Shown here: piece after piece, positions 1,044 to 4,352 of the stretch
Numbering within the stretch: the stretch's first letter is position 1
Layout of the letters: the number at the start of each line of letters is the position of its first letter
DNA from: a virus
Taxonomy: Duplodnaviria; Heunggongvirae; Uroviricota; Caudoviricetes
IMG/VR virus record: IMGVR_UViG_2713896777_000025
Strand: one strand, 5' to 3'
Length of the DNA stretch: 4,352 nucleotides
Notes under the pieces: model-generated
The model's input: only the letters and a program-made list of their open reading frames with translations
Database searches by the model: none
Told to the model about the DNA's origin: nothing
Made by a program: the position numbers and the translations under genes

Positions 1044-1257
1044 AACCCCCCCCATTTTCACAATCAGCAACAAGAATATTTTTAGCGTCATTCAGCGACC
1101 GCGTTGCGATGTATCGGATACATTCCAGGGCGAACTGTGTCCGGTCTTTCTGTTCTTCTCCCTGCGCAAGCTCTGCAGTGCATTCAATATCGATAAGCGC
1201 GTGCATCAGCGTAGTGAGCGCGGCGGCTGCTGCGTCCGGTGTGGTTTTATTGCACAT
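1036..1257 (-). CDS. Hypothetical small acidic protein (73 aa, MCNKTTPDAAAAALTTLMHALIDIECTAELAQGEEQKDRTQFALECIRYIATRSLNDAKNILVADCENGGGYA)
   Basis: Same frame as ORF-track ORF 1036..1299; start placed at ATG 1257-1255, which has a consensus SD AGGAGG (revcomp of 1264-1269) 6 nt upstream and overlaps the last codons of the preceding gene. Stop TGA at 1038-1036. Confidence 0.6.
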   Translation of the reverse strand: MCNKTTPDAAAAALTTLMHALIDIECTAELAQGEEQKDRTQFALECIRYIATRSLNDAKNILVADCENGGGYA

Positions 1258-1807
1258 GGCACACCTCCTGACGAATACGGGCGGCGAATACAGCAACACA
1301 ACCGGACGGGCAACGGCTACGCGCTTCGCGTTCCGTCCAGGCGGTTACGTGGATGATTTGATGTTCTGACGCGCCAAAGATGATAAAGCGCCAGAGAAAG
1401 GCGGTTTGAGAATGTACAAGGGTAGGGATAGTAGCCATGTTGGCAGCCTCCTCAGTGTGGTTAAGATAACCGCCACCGGAAACGCCAATTTCGCTGGTGG
1501 CGGACTGTACAGGGTTGGCGTAACCGGACACTGAAGAAACCGGCGCGGATTGCTCCGCCCCCGTACAGCCCACCATTGATAAGGTGTGACTATGCGGCAC
1601 AAAAAAACACGCGGGGCGCGTGTTATGCGCTTCAGTTTTGCCCAGGACGCCAATCCCGGCACCCGTTTTATGAGGTGCGCGGGAATCATAGCTATTTTCG
1701 ACACTGGCGATCAACTGGTTTTTTTCTCCGATATTCAGGGCCAGAAAACGCCACACAAAGGCCGTTTGTGTGTGTACAAGGTGTGGTATATGATTTACGG
1801 CAACCAT
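1247..1807 (-). CDS. Small protein (186 aa) with an internal tandem duplication of an N-terminal module (HIPHLVHTQTAFVWRFLALNIGEKNQLI / TIPTLVHSQTAFLWRFIIFGASEHQII); possibly related to Icd-like proteins of P4-type elements (unverified)
   Basis: ATG at 1807-1805 with SD AGGAG (revcomp of 1813-1817) 5 nt upstream; frame open to TAA at 1249-1247. A second in-frame ATG at 1438-1436 has its own strong SD GAGGAGG (revcomp of 1447-1453, 8-nt spacer) and begins a 63-aa copy of the module. The longer ORF-track call 1247..2323 is rejected because it reads antisense through the RHH gene and the operator region. Confidence 0.55.
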   Translation of the reverse strand: MVAVNHIPHLVHTQTAFVWRFLALNIGEKNQLIASVENSYDSRAPHKTGAGIGVLGKTEAHNTRPACFFVPHSHTLSMVGCTGAEQSAPVSSVSGYANPVQSATSEIGVSGGGYLNHTEEAANMATIPTLVHSQTAFLWRFIIFGASEHQIIHVTAWTEREARSRCPSGCVAVFAARIRQEVCHVQ

Positions 1808-1836
1808 AACGGCTCCTAGTTTACGTTGTTGGTTAG

Positions 1837-1878
1837 ACGCCCCGTATGTGTTCCCAGCACTGCGGGGCGTTGATTTTT
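1837..1878 (+). terminator. Hairpin followed by a T-tract (terminator-like on the plus strand; also a structured element in the 5' leader of the minus-strand operon)
   Basis: ACGCCCCG (1838-1845) pairs with CGGGGCGT (1863-1870), with an inner GTG/CAC pair, followed by TGATTTTTGT (1871-1880). On the minus strand the same stem is not followed by a U-tract. Confidence 0.3.
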
Positions 1879-1897
1879 GTGTAATGGCAAGTACAAT
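1870..1897 (+). promoter_or_regulatory. Candidate sigma70 promoter for the RHH gene (TTGATT - 16 bp - TACAAT)
   Basis: -35 TTGATT at 1870-1875 and -10 TACAAT at 1892-1897; predicted TSS near 1904, about 34 nt before the RHH ATG. The -10 overlaps palindrome 1. Confidence 0.4.
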
Positions 1898-1909
1898 GGT
1901 AATTACCAT
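1896..1909. promoter_or_regulatory. Perfect 14-bp palindrome ATGGTAATTACCAT (candidate operator 1)
   Basis: Read directly from the sequence; it is its own reverse complement. Overlaps the plus-strand -10 and the predicted TSS of the minus-strand promoter. Confidence 0.5.
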
Positions 1910-1915
1910 GTAGGT

Positions 1916-1944
1916 ATAGTAATGAAGGGTAATTACCATGTCAA
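1916..1944 (-). promoter_or_regulatory. Candidate sigma70 promoter for the minus-strand small-gene operon (TTGACA - 17 bp - TACTAT)
   Basis: On the minus strand, a consensus -35 TTGACA (revcomp of 1939-1944, overlapping the RHH start codon), an exact 17-bp spacer that contains palindrome 2, and -10 TACTAT (revcomp of 1916-1921). Predicted TSS near 1908, about 100 nt before ATG 1807. Confidence 0.45.
1928..1937. promoter_or_regulatory. Perfect 10-bp palindrome GGTAATTACC (candidate operator 2)
   Basis: Same core as palindrome 1, 30 bp centre-to-centre. Sits in the -35/-10 spacer of the minus-strand promoter and covers the RBS of the RHH gene. Confidence 0.5.
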
Positions 1945-2111
1945 CACCATTAGAAAAACGTTCGCCTCCATACCAAATGCGATTACCGGAAGACTTCAGA
2001 GCGCAGCTAGAAGAAGCAGCTAAGGCCGATGGCGACACATCTTTAGCCACTTGGATTAAACGCGTTCTCCGCAAAGAATTACAGCAACGCGGCATAGAAC
2101 CCAAAGGATAA
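1938..2111 (+). CDS. Arc/Mnt/MetJ-family ribbon-helix-helix DNA-binding protein (57 aa, MSTPLEKRSPPYQMRLPEDFRAQLEEAAKADGDTSLATWIKRVLRKELQQRGIEPKG)
   Basis: Not in the ORF track (below its size cut-off); translated by hand. SD AAGGG at 1925-1929, 8 nt before ATG 1938; stop TAA at 2109-2111. The protein has the Arc/Mnt RHH pattern: beta-strand YQMRLP, helix A EDFRAQLEEAAKADG, turn, helix B SLATWIKRVLRKELQQ. Confidence 0.8.
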   Translation: MSTPLEKRSPPYQMRLPEDFRAQLEEAAKADGDTSLATWIKRVLRKELQQRGIEPKG

Positions 2112-2168
2112 AAACTATCAGCGCCGTGGTGTGAGGTATTACGGCGCATTGCTATGCAGGACAACACA

Positions 2169-2327
2169 ATGACCGATAAAGAATTGACCAAAACATNNNN
2201 NNNNNNNNNNNNNNNNNNNNNNNNNNNNNNNNNNNNNNNNNNNNNNNNNNNNNNNCTGATTGCATTGCCCACCAGCCTGATAGCGGCTATCATCCCCGTG
2301 CTTATGTTTGGGATCACATACACATAA
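2169..2327 (+). CDS. Probable small single-TM membrane peptide (~52 aa; MTDKELTKT...[about 20 masked codons]...LIALPTSLIAAIIPVLMFGITYT)
   Basis: ATG 2169 with AGGA (2158-2161) 7 nt upstream; an alternative ATG is at 2154. The frame stays in register across the 59-nt N-run and ends at TAA 2325-2327, 27 nt before a strong plus-strand terminator. The C-terminus is a 20-residue hydrophobic stretch. Uncertain because about 40% of the ORF is masked. Confidence 0.35.
   Translation: MTDKELTKTXXXXXXXXXXXXXXXXXXXXLIALPTSLIAAIIPVLMFGITYT
2197..2255. other. Run of 59 N (masked or unresolved bases)
   Basis: Directly visible. Falls inside the candidate small membrane-peptide ORF. Confidence 1.
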
Positions 2328-2353
2328 GGCGCAGCGGGTTAATTGTTCAGAAA

Positions 2354-2381
2354 GGCGGCTCCATATCGGGGCCGCTTTTTT
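2354..2381 (+). terminator. Rho-independent terminator for the plus-strand RHH cassette (possibly weakly bidirectional, also ending alpA)
   Basis: GCGGCTCC (2355-2362) pairs with GGGGCCGC (2368-2375), 8 bp with one G-U, loop ATATC, followed by TTTTTT (2376-2381). On the minus strand the hairpin is followed only by CTTTCTG. Confidence 0.6.
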
Positions 2382-2407: not shown

Positions 2408-2614
2408 TTAAGCAGCCGTTCCGCGTGCTTCCTCTTCGCGTTCTTTCTGCCAGGACAACACATCATCCTCATACCATCCGCGACGGCGTAAACCAACGCG
2501 AAAACCCTGCGGAAATTCTCCGGCGTTGATCATGCTTTGCAGCGTGCTGTCTGCCTTGATGTGGATAATTTTTTTTACTTCCTGGCGAAAGATAATTTTT
2601 CTGATTGCTTCCAT
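2408..2614 (-). CDS. alpA: AlpA/Vis-family phage transcriptional regulator (68 aa)
   Basis: ORF-track ORF. The sequence RQEVKKIIHIKADSTLQSMINAGEFPQGFRVGLRRRGWYEDDVLSWQ matches the AlpA family pattern (HTH, then G-x-FP-x-P/G-x-K/R-hG-x-R-x-x-GW, then W). SD AAGGT lies 8 nt upstream of ATG 2614. It sits downstream of int on the same strand, as in CP4-57-type islands. Confidence 0.85.
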   Translation of the reverse strand: MEAIRKIIFRQEVKKIIHIKADSTLQSMINAGEFPQGFRVGLRRRGWYEDDVLSWQKEREEEARGTAA

Positions 2615-3110: not shown

Positions 3111-4352
3111 CTACACGGCTCGGATACCCCTTTTACCACTGGCGAGGGTTACGCCCGTCGCCGCAGCCTCGACAAATTCGCCCCACCAGCGCATCAGCAC
3201 GATGCGTTTTTCTATGTAGTTGCTCCGGTTGTATGCCCGTCTAACTTCGTTGGTGTCGACGTGGGCAAGTGCCGCCTCTATTACGTCCGGCTCGAATCCT
3301 TCCTCGTTCGCTGCTGTGCTGAATATGGCGCGTAATCCATGAGACACCAGCACGCCAGCGAATCCCATACGCCGCAATGCTGCGTTAGCTGTCTGGCTGT
3401 TCATCGGCTGCTGTGGGTCTTTCAGACTTGGGAAAACGTAATTGCGGTGGTGGCTGATTGGTTTCATGGCCTCCAGCACCGCCATAGCCTGACCGGAAAG
3501 CGGGATAACGTGATCCCTGCGCATCTTCATGCGTCCGGCAGGTATCGTCCATTGCTTCGCGTCCAGGTTGATTTCATCCCACCGCGTTGATGACGCTTCG
3601 GCGGGACGGGTTACGGTCAGTAACTGCCATTCAATCAGTAATCTGGTCTGCCGTTCTGTTGCCGATACTGATAAAGCCTGCATAAGCTCGGGCAGCTGTT
3701 CGGGGCGGATTGTTGGCATATGTTTTTTTACAGGTGAGGGAAACGCCTTACGCACATTCATAGCCGGATTGGCATCAATCAGCCCACTGTTGGCGGCGTA
3801 ATCCATTACCTCATTAACGCGCTGTAAAACCCGCTTGAGTGTTTCCAGGTTGCCGCGCTCCTTGATGGGGGTAAGCACTTCAACGAACCTTCGGGCGGTG
3901 AGGGTATCTATTGGCGTGTTGCCGATGAACGGGAATACATATTTATCCAGCGAACGCCAGATGTCTTTAATCGTGTTGGGGGCCAGATTCTGGCTGATTT
4001 TCACCTGGTACCATGCCGCCGCCACATTTTCGAACGTGTTCCCTTGTCTTCGGGCCTCTGTCTCTCTTTTTTGCCTCTCGTGGTCCTGCGGGTCAGTTCC
4101 GGCACTGATTAACGTCCTGTACTCGCTACGGCGTTTTCTGGCATCAGCCAGGGAAACATCTTCAAGCGATCCAAAACTCAGCAATATTCTTTTTTTGTCC
4201 GATGGTCGGTAGTAGGAAAATCTCCAGAGTTTTGATCCAGACGGTTTGACCAGGAGAAAAAGCCCTCCGCCGTCCTGCAGGGTGTACTCCTTTTGCGCTG
4301 GTCTGGCTGCTTTGATCTGCACTGTGGTTAATGGGTGTGTTTTTCTCGCCAT
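3111..4352 (-). CDS. int: P4-family tyrosine recombinase / phage integrase (413 aa, complete; ATG is the last 3 bases of the window)
   Basis: ORF-track ORF. N-terminal arm-binding-type region (LTTVQIKAARPAQKEYTLQDGGGLFLLVKPSGSKLWRFSYY) and a C-terminal catalytic domain with the conserved residues in order: R (LTVTRPAE), K (GRMKMRR), H-x-x-R (SHGLRAIF), H (ALAHVD), Y (RAYNRSNY). Stop TAG at 3113-3111. Confidence 0.95.
   Translation of the reverse strand: MARKTHPLTTVQIKAARPAQKEYTLQDGGGLFLLVKPSGSKLWRFSYYRPSDKKRILLSFGSLEDVSLADARKRRSEYRTLISAGTDPQDHERQKRETEARRQGNTFENVAAAWYQVKISQNLAPNTIKDIWRSLDKYVFPFIGNTPIDTLTARRFVEVLTPIKERGNLETLKRVLQRVNEVMDYAANSGLIDANPAMNVRKAFPSPVKKHMPTIRPEQLPELMQALSVSATERQTRLLIEWQLLTVTRPAEASSTRWDEINLDAKQWTIPAGRMKMRRDHVIPLSGQAMAVLEAMKPISHHRNYVFPSLKDPQQPMNSQTANAALRRMGFAGVLVSHGLRAIFSTAANEEGFEPDVIEAALAHVDTNEVRRAYNRSNYIEKRIVLMRWWGEFVEAAATGVTLASGKRGIRAV

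Follow-up and report, generated by a model that had tools for sequence, protein, structure and literature searches.

An Arc-like ribbon-helix-helix protein and two matched putative operators over divergent promoters in an EcCICFT073-type phage-inducible chromosomal island

This study concerns a divergent promoter region, and the 57-amino-acid Arc-like ribbon-helix-helix (RHH) protein encoded beside it, in a 4,352-nucleotide stretch of viral DNA (IMG/VR record IMGVR_UViG_2713896777_000025, Caudoviricetes; hereafter the window), which belongs to a phage-inducible chromosomal island (PICI) of the EcCICFT073 type. Among described systems, the immI region of phage P22 is the closest analogue in logic, while EcCICFT073 itself and the left operon of P4 are the closest in context. 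In P22 immI, where two opposed promoters overlap, operators are located both in a promoter spacer and over a start site, and the silencing of one of these promoters by Mnt favours the other. The components of the region are the RHH repressors Mnt and Arc, the promoters Pant and Pmnt, and the sar antisense RNA (PMC2629481). The island is similar in that a small Arc-type RHH gene lies beside a strong promoter of a gene that disturbs the resident state, and in that an antisense RNA with its own terminator, only predicted in the island, may act on the ribosome-binding site of the target. It differs in having one RHH gene where immI has two, and in its target, which is an Icd-like division inhibitor together with the satellite replication operon rather than an antirepressor; moreover, no sequence relationship could be detected beyond the fold.

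EcCICFT073 shares with the island an integrase gene, an AlpA-type helix-turn-helix (HTH) gene, a pair of small genes in reversed orientation, a divergent Icd-like gene, small open reading frames (ORFs), DUF4222, a primase/helicase and a capsid gene, and also an identical 62-amino-acid gene, the same 5' hairpin, and a 433-codon frame antisense to the reversed genes. The two are unlike in the reversed regulator, which in EcCICFT073 is a YlcI/YnfO-family protein only weakly related to the RHH protein (hhalign probability 15%), and in the repeats, which there are GGTGTGGCCCAC, found twice, 23 bp apart; at this profile-profile probability we claim a positional analogy and no homology. In the Gram-positive PICIs (SaPIs), the Stl/Rpr repressors are likewise encoded divergently from the satellite replication and packaging operon (PMC6092414). 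Stl, however, is a large HTH protein that is removed by helper-phage proteins, whereas the repressor candidate of the island is an RHH protein of 57 residues, and AlpA-driven read-through would offer an alternative route of escape. For the Gram-negative elements, a global repressor was described as unclear in 2018 (PMC6092414). We found no paper that gives a function to an RHH, Arc or YlcI/YnfO regulator of a PICI, in a search that left most subscription journals outside, and one survey lists the RHH and YlcI genes solely as accessory 'HicB' or 'YlcI/YnfO' genes.

Judged from its sequence, the locus probably encodes such a regulator, in that the RHH protein is likely to repress both the operon that begins with the Icd-like ORF and continues into the replication genes, and its own gene. 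The elements on which this reading is built are as follows.

1896..1909, no strand: O1, putative distal operator ATGGTAATTACCAT, with arms ATGGT-N4-ACCAT
1928..1937, no strand: O2, putative proximal operator GGTAATTACC, inside the 17-bp spacer of the minus-strand promoter
1883..1899, no strand: possible weak auxiliary site (low confidence), a third copy of the repeat, 76% identical, 12 bp upstream of O1
1916..1944, minus strand: promoter P(-), with -35 TTGACA at 1944-1939, a 17-bp spacer and -10 TACTAT at 1921-1916; predicted start about 1909
1870..1897, plus strand: promoter P(+) of the RHH gene, with TTGATT at 1870-1875, 16 bp and TACAAT at 1892-1897; predicted start about 1904, inside O1
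1938..2111, plus strand: 57-amino-acid Arc-like RHH protein, putative repressor, assigned by homologues, phrog_228, an AlphaFold model and fold matches

An earlier note on this DNA, made from the letters alone, had described two perfect palindromes 30 bp apart that overlap both promoters, and both palindromes are indeed present in the sequence at the positions of O1 and O2. As the note had proposed, O1 overlaps the -10 hexamer of the plus-strand promoter, by two bases (1896-1897), and spans both predicted transcription starts, its right edge at 1909 being the predicted start of the minus strand. O2 lies wholly within the minus-strand spacer (1922-1938), where it also overlaps the GGG of the Shine-Dalgarno sequence of the RHH gene, and the minus-strand -35 (1939-1944) shares two bases with the RHH start codon (ATG, 1938-1940), again as described. 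The coordinates of the note were correct overall but carried one-base offsets, such that the divergent ORF starts at 1807 and not at 1808. In a consensus scan, P(-) matched 10 of 12 positions and is thus near-consensus; P(+) is weaker, with 9 of 12.

A 14-nucleotide direct repeat, GGTAATTACCATGT, occurs at 1898-1911 and 1928-1941 with a start-to-start spacing of 30 bp, and a repeat finder returned both a 17-nucleotide repeat family, with copies at 1895-1911 and 1925-1941 (30 bp apart) and a weaker third at 1883-1899, and 12-nucleotide inverted-repeat arms at 1896-1907 and 1928-1939 that are 100% complementary. When GGTAATTACC was searched for with at most one mismatch, the regions 1896-1909 and 1928-1937 were the only two sites in the window; shuffled versions of the window contained 0.12 matches on average, and 2 of 200 shuffles reached two. 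The weak third copy has clearer counterparts elsewhere, since GTAATTGCGG or TGTAATTACA is clearly present one helical turn upstream of O1 in several other loci.

The 57-amino-acid ORF appears to be a real Arc-like RHH gene. An exact-word search retrieved homologues in 93 clusters, mostly at 61-98% identity and nearly all about 57 residues long, the lowest being a single partial match at 56% identity; their hosts are Enterobacterales, Pasteurellaceae, Oceanimonas, Oceanisphaera, Aeromonas and Gilliamella. A full HMM search of 1.84 billion representative proteins returned 38 representatives only, which indicates that the family is tight and narrow. The ORF matched phrog_228, 'Arc-like repressor', over residues 6-55 with an E-value of 1.5e-6. 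The AlphaFold monomer model (pLDDT 76.7) has residues 1-17 extended, followed by helices at 18-31 and 36-50, i.e., the strand-helix-helix topology of an RHH domain of about 45 residues, although a monomer cannot show the intersubunit sheet. The top Foldseek matches to solved structures were all RHH proteins, namely AmrZ, Arc, CopG, ParG, NikR, PutA and several antitoxins, with AmrZ leading at 37% identity and a root-mean-square deviation of 1.3 Å. The N-terminal segment PQYQMRLP aligns residue by residue with the DNA-reading strand of Arc, PQFNLRWP. A sequence profile search against solved structures was set aside, as its top matches were designed helical repeats and spurious, and the only other match was AmrZ with an E-value of 0.76. 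Annotations of this protein in other genomes read 'Arc family DNA-binding protein', 'HicB antitoxin' or 'hypothetical'. Its C-terminal tail RGIEPKG (residues 51-57, 2088-2108), which lies outside the predicted helices, is almost invariant in every operator class described below, and is also found in a tandem paralogue in locus L005; it may serve as a docking or a degradation signal that bears on induction.

The arrangement of palindromes and promoters was then compared over 60 loci with relatives of the RHH gene (individual loci are given L numbers), drawn from Enterobacterales, Pasteurellaceae, relatives of Aeromonadaceae, and Orbaceae. Except in a few degenerate loci, one plan recurs over the 130-150 bp that precede the RHH start codon. 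The divergent gene, which has a Shine-Dalgarno sequence of its own, begins 128-155 bp from that codon and usually encodes an Icd-like protein of 58-68 residues; in Xenorhabdus the product is a primase fusion. In 48 of 51 non-redundant intergenic sequences, the opposite strand has TTGACA at +2 to +7 of the RHH start, a position that holds even where the start codon is GTG or TTG, and a -10-like hexamer follows at 16-18 bp. Of the six serine codons, TCA alone is used as the second codon of the RHH gene, a sign of constraint on the DNA itself. The first palindrome is always inside the minus-strand spacer and the second 30-35 bp beyond it. In class A, the proximal site is at -10 from the start codon in nearly all loci, and the second palindrome directly abuts TACAAT, TAAAAT or TATAAT, with TTGnTT located 16-18 bp upstream; classes B to D have cognate variants at the proximal position, and the other classes likewise have a cognate variant at the position of O1. 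Most class-A loci carry TTGnTT and TA(C/A/T)AAT at matching offsets, whereas P(+) is weaker and less conserved in class B. Conservation of the same arrangement in 48 non-redundant loci of other genera argues that it is more than chance.

Within the class-A alignment, the operators and the promoter hexamers are the only conserved blocks, and the sequence between them varies. Over 23 class-A loci, the O1 arms ATGGT and ACCAT do not change, but the four base pairs between them do (AATT, CGTT, CATT or ACGT), which suggests that each arm is read separately; this would be as in the Arc, CopG or MetJ operators under two dimers. Across the loci, the sites also change together with the N-terminal segment of the adjacent protein, in the following pairs.

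RSPQ(Y/F)QMRL segment: GGTA-N2-TACC at both sites
K(T/S)xQYQ(I/L)RL segment: TGTAATTACA at both sites
GNPPFQFRL segment: GTGTAATTACAC and GTGTCAACACAC
YlcI/YnfO-type protein (EcCICFT073 and a second E. coli island): GGTGTGGCCCAC or GGTGTCAGCCAC, twice, beside TTGAC

In agreement with these pairs, the proximal 12-mer has a mean of 2.7 mismatches at its best match in its own distal region; the mean is 2.6 against loci within the class, 4.2 against those outside it and 5.5 against shuffled sequence. Such concerted change of sites 30 bp apart is expected for operators that are read by the adjacent protein, and is not expected for those of a host or helper factor. Together with the phrog_228 match, the RHH folds and the conserved geometry, it gives good support to the central proposal of the earlier note, namely an RHH repressor acting on two operators over both promoters.

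The same observations bear on the possibility that the palindromes are operators of a different protein, such as AlpA, a helper-phage repressor or Cro, or a host factor, with the RHH protein as a bystander. Control of EcCICFT073 genes has been shown for no regulator other than AlpA (PMC6092414), and 14-bp palindromes are typical of phage HTH repressors as well. Nonetheless, the site sequence follows the adjacent RHH subfamily across genera and always touches the RHH start codon, and co-variation with a satellite gene is not what would be expected of a binder encoded by the helper; we therefore regard this explanation as unlikely.

A number of points nevertheless weigh against an RHH repressor as the reader of these sites. 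The protein classes are also clades, so that the association between operator and protein could partly be co-inheritance; classes A and C have a half-site in common despite different strand residues; and one locus, L030, is an exception, in that its protein reads QYQMRL and its site is of class B. P(+) is poorly defined in class B. As for the protein, the Pfam Arc model scored below threshold (E 0.038, 14.3 bits against a cut-off of 20.4), as did the NCBIfam YlcI/YnfO model NF041551 (E 0.0014, 18.7 bits against a curated cut-off of 30), such that the window protein is not placed in the latter family, and the Foldseek E-values were about 1, which is attributable to the protein being so short. 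The two families adjoin, in that a class-D relative in E. coli JNEC-KY203 carries the RefSeq name YlcI/YnfO. Lastly, overexpression of AlpA alone induces EcCICFT073 (PMC6092414), which leaves a way around any repressor placed here, so that such a repressor may not be the master control.

In another explanation, the RHH protein does no more than regulate its own gene, or else serves as antitoxin in a toxin-antitoxin or defence cassette, and its overlap with the leftward promoter is incidental. Some database records do call the homologues 'HicB family antitoxin', RHH antitoxins autoregulate through palindromes, and in the island of the window a gene for a 62-residue protein follows the RHH gene.

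2154..2259, plus strand: second plus-strand gene, encoding a 62-amino-acid basic protein (phrog_21027), partly masked by N in the window
2349..2381, plus strand: intrinsic terminator closing the RHH transcription unit (terminator scan)

This 62-residue gene is common to EcCICFT073 but is not conserved beside RHH genes elsewhere. No conserved partner gene was found downstream of the RHH gene across the loci, where the plus-strand ORFs differ or are missing and the RHH gene is usually alone, which argues that it is not the antitoxin of a two-gene module; a toxin-antitoxin system was rejected as no conserved adjacent toxin gene was present across the loci. Furthermore, the position of the proximal site in the spacer of a near-invariant opposing promoter, in 48 of 51 loci, is hard to explain unless P(-) is regulated, and we consider this second explanation quite improbable. 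Tandem pairs of RHH or YlcI modules, in which every module has a hairpin and operators of its own, occur in some genomes, for example E. coli O43 RM10042 and several Photorhabdus (L066 at 720-1800; L033-L037 at about 2770 and about 3989), and the module thus behaves as a recombining cassette.

The strand opposite the RHH gene is also open over a long distance, and the interpretation of this region is affected by two runs of N in the window, at 612-688 and 2197-2255, which are not true to length; the second is 59 N in the window and 142 nucleotides in the O26:H11 genome. Thus, ORFs that cross the masks are artefactual or mis-sized, such as a 358-residue minus-strand ORF, and a membrane-like 57-residue ORF at 2154-2327 was discarded as an artefact of the mask, its true product in the unmasked genome being the 62-residue basic protein. 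In the unmasked genome, a minus-strand ORF of 409 codons (L001 11848-13077, window about 1247-2393) begins 15 nucleotides after the AlpA-like gene. It lies antisense to both plus-strand genes, of 62 and 57 residues, as well as to the promoter region, and passes in the same frame into the ORF that holds the Icd-like, isrK and C4 sequences. The equivalent frame of EcCICFT073 has 433 codons, and its N-terminus appears to resemble a Bro-N domain. Similar frames of 366-529 codons are found in Pasteurellaceae and Citrobacter loci; many other genera have the frame broken, and it is short in Pectobacterium, Yersinia and others. By hypothesis, the long frame is P4-eta-like and translated only from the alpA promoter.

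It could accordingly be asked whether the 57-residue ORF is a gene at all, or whether the product of the region is that of the 409-codon ORF and the palindromes are its coding or RNA features. RefSeq annotates the minus strand here, as a partial 'Icd-like' pseudogene (L001 12562-13077), and leaves the RHH ORF, like the second plus-strand gene, unannotated in O26:H11 strain 11368 (NC_013361). Moreover, the long frame is unlikely to be open by chance: when synonymous codons were randomised and the non-coding parts shuffled, the 669 nucleotides upstream of 1807 were open in 0.08% of the trials (P about 0.0008) and the isrK/C4 part in 0.4%. Third codon positions are common to the RHH gene and the antisense frame, and the strong excess of differences at third positions in 26 RHH coding sequences of equal length (positions 1:2:3 = 3948:2074:8981) therefore cannot by itself separate the two frames. 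However, 56 non-redundant sequences keep an intact, RHH-like ORF of about 57 residues, whereas the antisense frame is interrupted in 27 of the 56; it is open in the other 29, against an expectation of about 14%. No recognisable domain was found in the antisense translation, which resembles non-coding sequence, and both frames may be used, the two not being exclusive. That the RHH ORF is not a gene is thus very improbable.

Finally, an RNA role or a chance origin of the repeats is scarcely credible: their arms (1896-1907 and 1928-1939) are fully complementary and would give a 12-bp stem in read-through transcripts, but neither predicted primary transcript holds both arms, the sites of other loci differ at the centre (e.g., ATGGTCGTTACCAT as opposed to GGTAATTACC) such that the stem is broken while protein-type half-sites are kept, no paired substitutions in O1 and O2 were seen that would maintain the stem at the expense of the half-sites, and chance is excluded by the conservation.

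Returning to the RHH protein as a repressor, we infer from these features its binding to DNA and stoichiometry, the direction of regulation and the starts of transcription, and the following sequence of events is proposed. The protein would be made from the weak P(+) and bind O1 and O2, three helical turns apart, probably as dimers of dimers. With O2 occupied in the spacer of P(-), and O1 at both starts and the -10 of P(+), P(-) would be shut off; this promoter would otherwise transcribe the ORF for the Icd-like cell-division inhibitor and then the replication and packaging genes. Considering that the RNA polymerase sites overlap, the silencing of P(-) should at first favour P(+), and at higher occupancy the RHH protein would limit its own synthesis from P(+). 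Two further layers may be added, as the isrK and C4 immunity cassette would act on the transcript from P(-), and a plus-strand antisense RNA ending at a terminator at 1836-1880 is probably another.

The immunity cassette is located about 230 bp downstream of the switch on the same strand, and comprises the following features.

1247..1807, minus strand: 186-codon ORF, with ATG at 1807 and the Shine-Dalgarno sequence AGGAG at 1817-1813
1685..1714, minus strand: isrK promoter TTGATC-18-TATGAT; predicted start 1678, the 5' end of the Rfam isrK match
1602..1678, minus strand: isrK-family RNA, relative of P4 seqA and of the P1 a1b1 target (RF01394, 66 bits, gathering score 50)
1624-1602, minus strand: intrinsic terminator ending the isrK RNA (terminator scan)
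1493..1580, minus strand: C4 antisense immunity RNA of the P1 c4 / P4 CI family (RF01695, 77.6 bits, gathering score 45)

The C4 loop CUUCAGUGU is complementary, as read from the sequence, to ACACUGAGG, which lies at the ribosome-binding site of the complete Icd-like gene with its start at 1438 (NCBIfam phage_ICD_like, E 1.4e-15). The island thus has the features of P4/P1-type RNA immunity, i.e., a C4 RNA and an upstream target on the same strand, and an icd Shine-Dalgarno sequence complementary to the loop. The earlier note had contrasted a protein switch with such RNA immunity; the island has both, the isrK and C4 matches lying just downstream of the switch. Rfam matches of this type, which detect the relatives of P4 seqA and CI, have been reported before in some PICIs (PMC10111431). 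The 186-codon ORF consists of an Icd-like N-terminal half, an Ash-like middle that contains isrK and C4, and the complete Icd-like gene (1438-1247) at its end. The Icd-like N-terminal motif occurs twice, as HTQTAFVWRFLAL near 1807 and as HSQTAFLWRFIIF near 1438. This gives the impression that an Ash/isrK/C4 cassette entered an ancestral Icd-like gene, part of which was duplicated.

In this part, the closest comparison is with the left operon of P4 (PLE, PLL, CI, seqA, eta/kil), in which eta and kil are nested (PMC10111431), and with P1 immI (c4-icd-ant). The likeness consists of the C4/CI and isrK/seqA RNAs, both above their gathering scores, a promoter exactly at the isrK 5' end, which by analogy is taken as the counterpart of the constitutive P4 promoter PLE, and an Icd-like gene that is terminal in a longer ORF beginning upstream; the long frame starting 15 nucleotides after the AlpA-like gene also recalls P4, where eta follows vis (PMC10111431). 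Unlike P4, the island lacks sid, delta, psu, epsilon and alpha, and unlike both P4 and P1, most of the RHH-bearing loci have neither C4 nor isrK. The cassette (window 1430-1720) is 72-75% identical to the annotated 'immunity region' of SfV and to regions of many Stx-converting phages, and is nearer to these than to P4. Since the cassette has its own promoter, repression of P(-) would not stop the synthesis of C4.

Among 34 other loci scanned, isrK and C4 were found in four, all of Pasteurellaceae (L029, L030, L031 and L047); in these cassette-bearing loci the isrK promoter is kept as TTTACA-17-TATTTT or TATAGT, and in all four an ORF of 203-315 codons begins at the divergent ATG. A universal partnership of C4 and isrK with the RHH module was rejected, as only the window and these four loci carry the cassette, and the RHH switch is thus an independent module.

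Between the two divergent starts lies a further conserved element, which the earlier note had overlooked within its own coordinates.

1836..1880, plus strand: hairpin followed by a T-run, an intrinsic terminator (-33.6 kcal/mol, z -4.2)
1766..1794, plus strand: candidate promoter TTGTGT-17-TATGAT, at consensus level

The stem region (1836-1871) is followed by TGATTTTTGT, and over 36 loci, including EcCICFT073, compensatory changes were found in 10 of the 13 pairs of the hairpin. The pairing holds in 94.8% of cells when read on the plus strand as against 82% on the minus strand, with 63 G-U pairs as against 3; this asymmetry indicates that the hairpin works on the plus strand, and the U-run after it makes it an intrinsic terminator. 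By the same G-U asymmetry, a role on the minus strand, as a structure in the 5' untranslated region of the Icd-like mRNA, was disfavoured. A conserved plus-strand terminator at this place means that transcription must enter from within the 5' end of the Icd-like gene, and a -10-like hexamer is indeed fixed at 42-43 nucleotides upstream of the sequence GGTYAGA in most loci, despite the differing proteins encoded there. These features suggest a plus-strand antisense RNA of about 80 nucleotides, from about 1801 to 1880, which would lie antisense to the Icd-like ORF over its leader, Shine-Dalgarno sequence and start codon; no Rfam match was obtained for this region. GGTYAGA itself (GGTTAGA at 1831-1837 in the window), just 5' of the hairpin, is near-invariant in all classes and in EcCICFT073, and is more conserved than the stem.

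A wider proposal, which is possible but doubtful, brings these layers together: the RHH protein and its YlcI/YnfO counterpart in EcCICFT073 would be the resident repressors of Gram-negative PICIs, each encoded antisense within a selected, P4-eta-like frame that starts directly after alpA. Transcription and translation of this frame, induced by the helper and driven by AlpA, would silence the repressor gene by collision as well as by antisense pairing, and at the same time ribosomes would traverse the isrK/C4 terminator region, thereby bypassing the RNA immunity; the sar-like RNA would form a third layer on the Icd-like gene. The induction of EcCICFT073 by AlpA alone makes AlpA-driven read-through across the reversed genes a plausible way past the repressor.

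The island itself could be placed through its host. Over bases 1400-2160, the window shows 100% identity with E. coli O26:H11 strain 11368, and with further enterohaemorrhagic strains as well; in O157 the module is 99% identical. In strain 11368 the island is about 8.2 kb long, next to tRNA-Pro and yejM, and is annotated (NC_013361) with an integrase, a small AlpA-like HTH gene, Icd-like and Ash-like ORFs, small ORFs, DUF4222, a RepA-family helicase, a small terminase subunit (terS) and a major capsid protein; in gene content, size and attachment site, as well as in synteny with EcCICFT073, it is a PICI. Gram-negative PICIs of this type span about 8-15 kb, with an integrase and an AlpA-type regulator at one end, a primase or helicase for replication, a few packaging or capsid genes and a specific att site. 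The remaining genes of the window that were placed are the following.

3111..4352, minus strand: tyrosine integrase, of the island beside tRNA-Pro and yejM
2408..2614, minus strand: AlpA-like HTH gene

The framing of the earlier note, which had set the element beside P4 and CP4-57, is therefore replaced by that of an EcCICFT073-type PICI. A P4-like satellite was rejected, as psu, delta, sid and alpha are not annotated in the NC_013361 island and P4 gave no match to the RHH protein; a search of a phage collection with this protein returned four records only, one of them a PICI-like Pasteurella 'phage' and none of them P4. Near alpA, several related loci (L030 6529-6594, L046 7180-7249 and L062 7939-8004) carry the int-alpA RNA motif of Rfam (RF02996), which was not detected in the window at E-values up to 1.

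The note had further called a protein switch in such an element an unusual control layer, yet the RHH module is not rare, being found in about 472 of 5426 complete E. coli genomes, or about 9%, at a coverage of at least 80%. The finding also exposes a problem of annotation, in that this conserved gene often goes unannotated and RefSeq places an opposite-strand pseudogene over it in strain 11368. In kind, the system would belong to a known class of RHH repressors and their operators, and EcCICFT073 has a positional analogue of it. How repression by a protein, immunity by an RNA and the action of an activator come to be combined on a single operon is a question that follows from it. The RHH protein with its matched operators is a credible candidate for the missing resident repressor of these widespread satellites, layered with RNA immunity.

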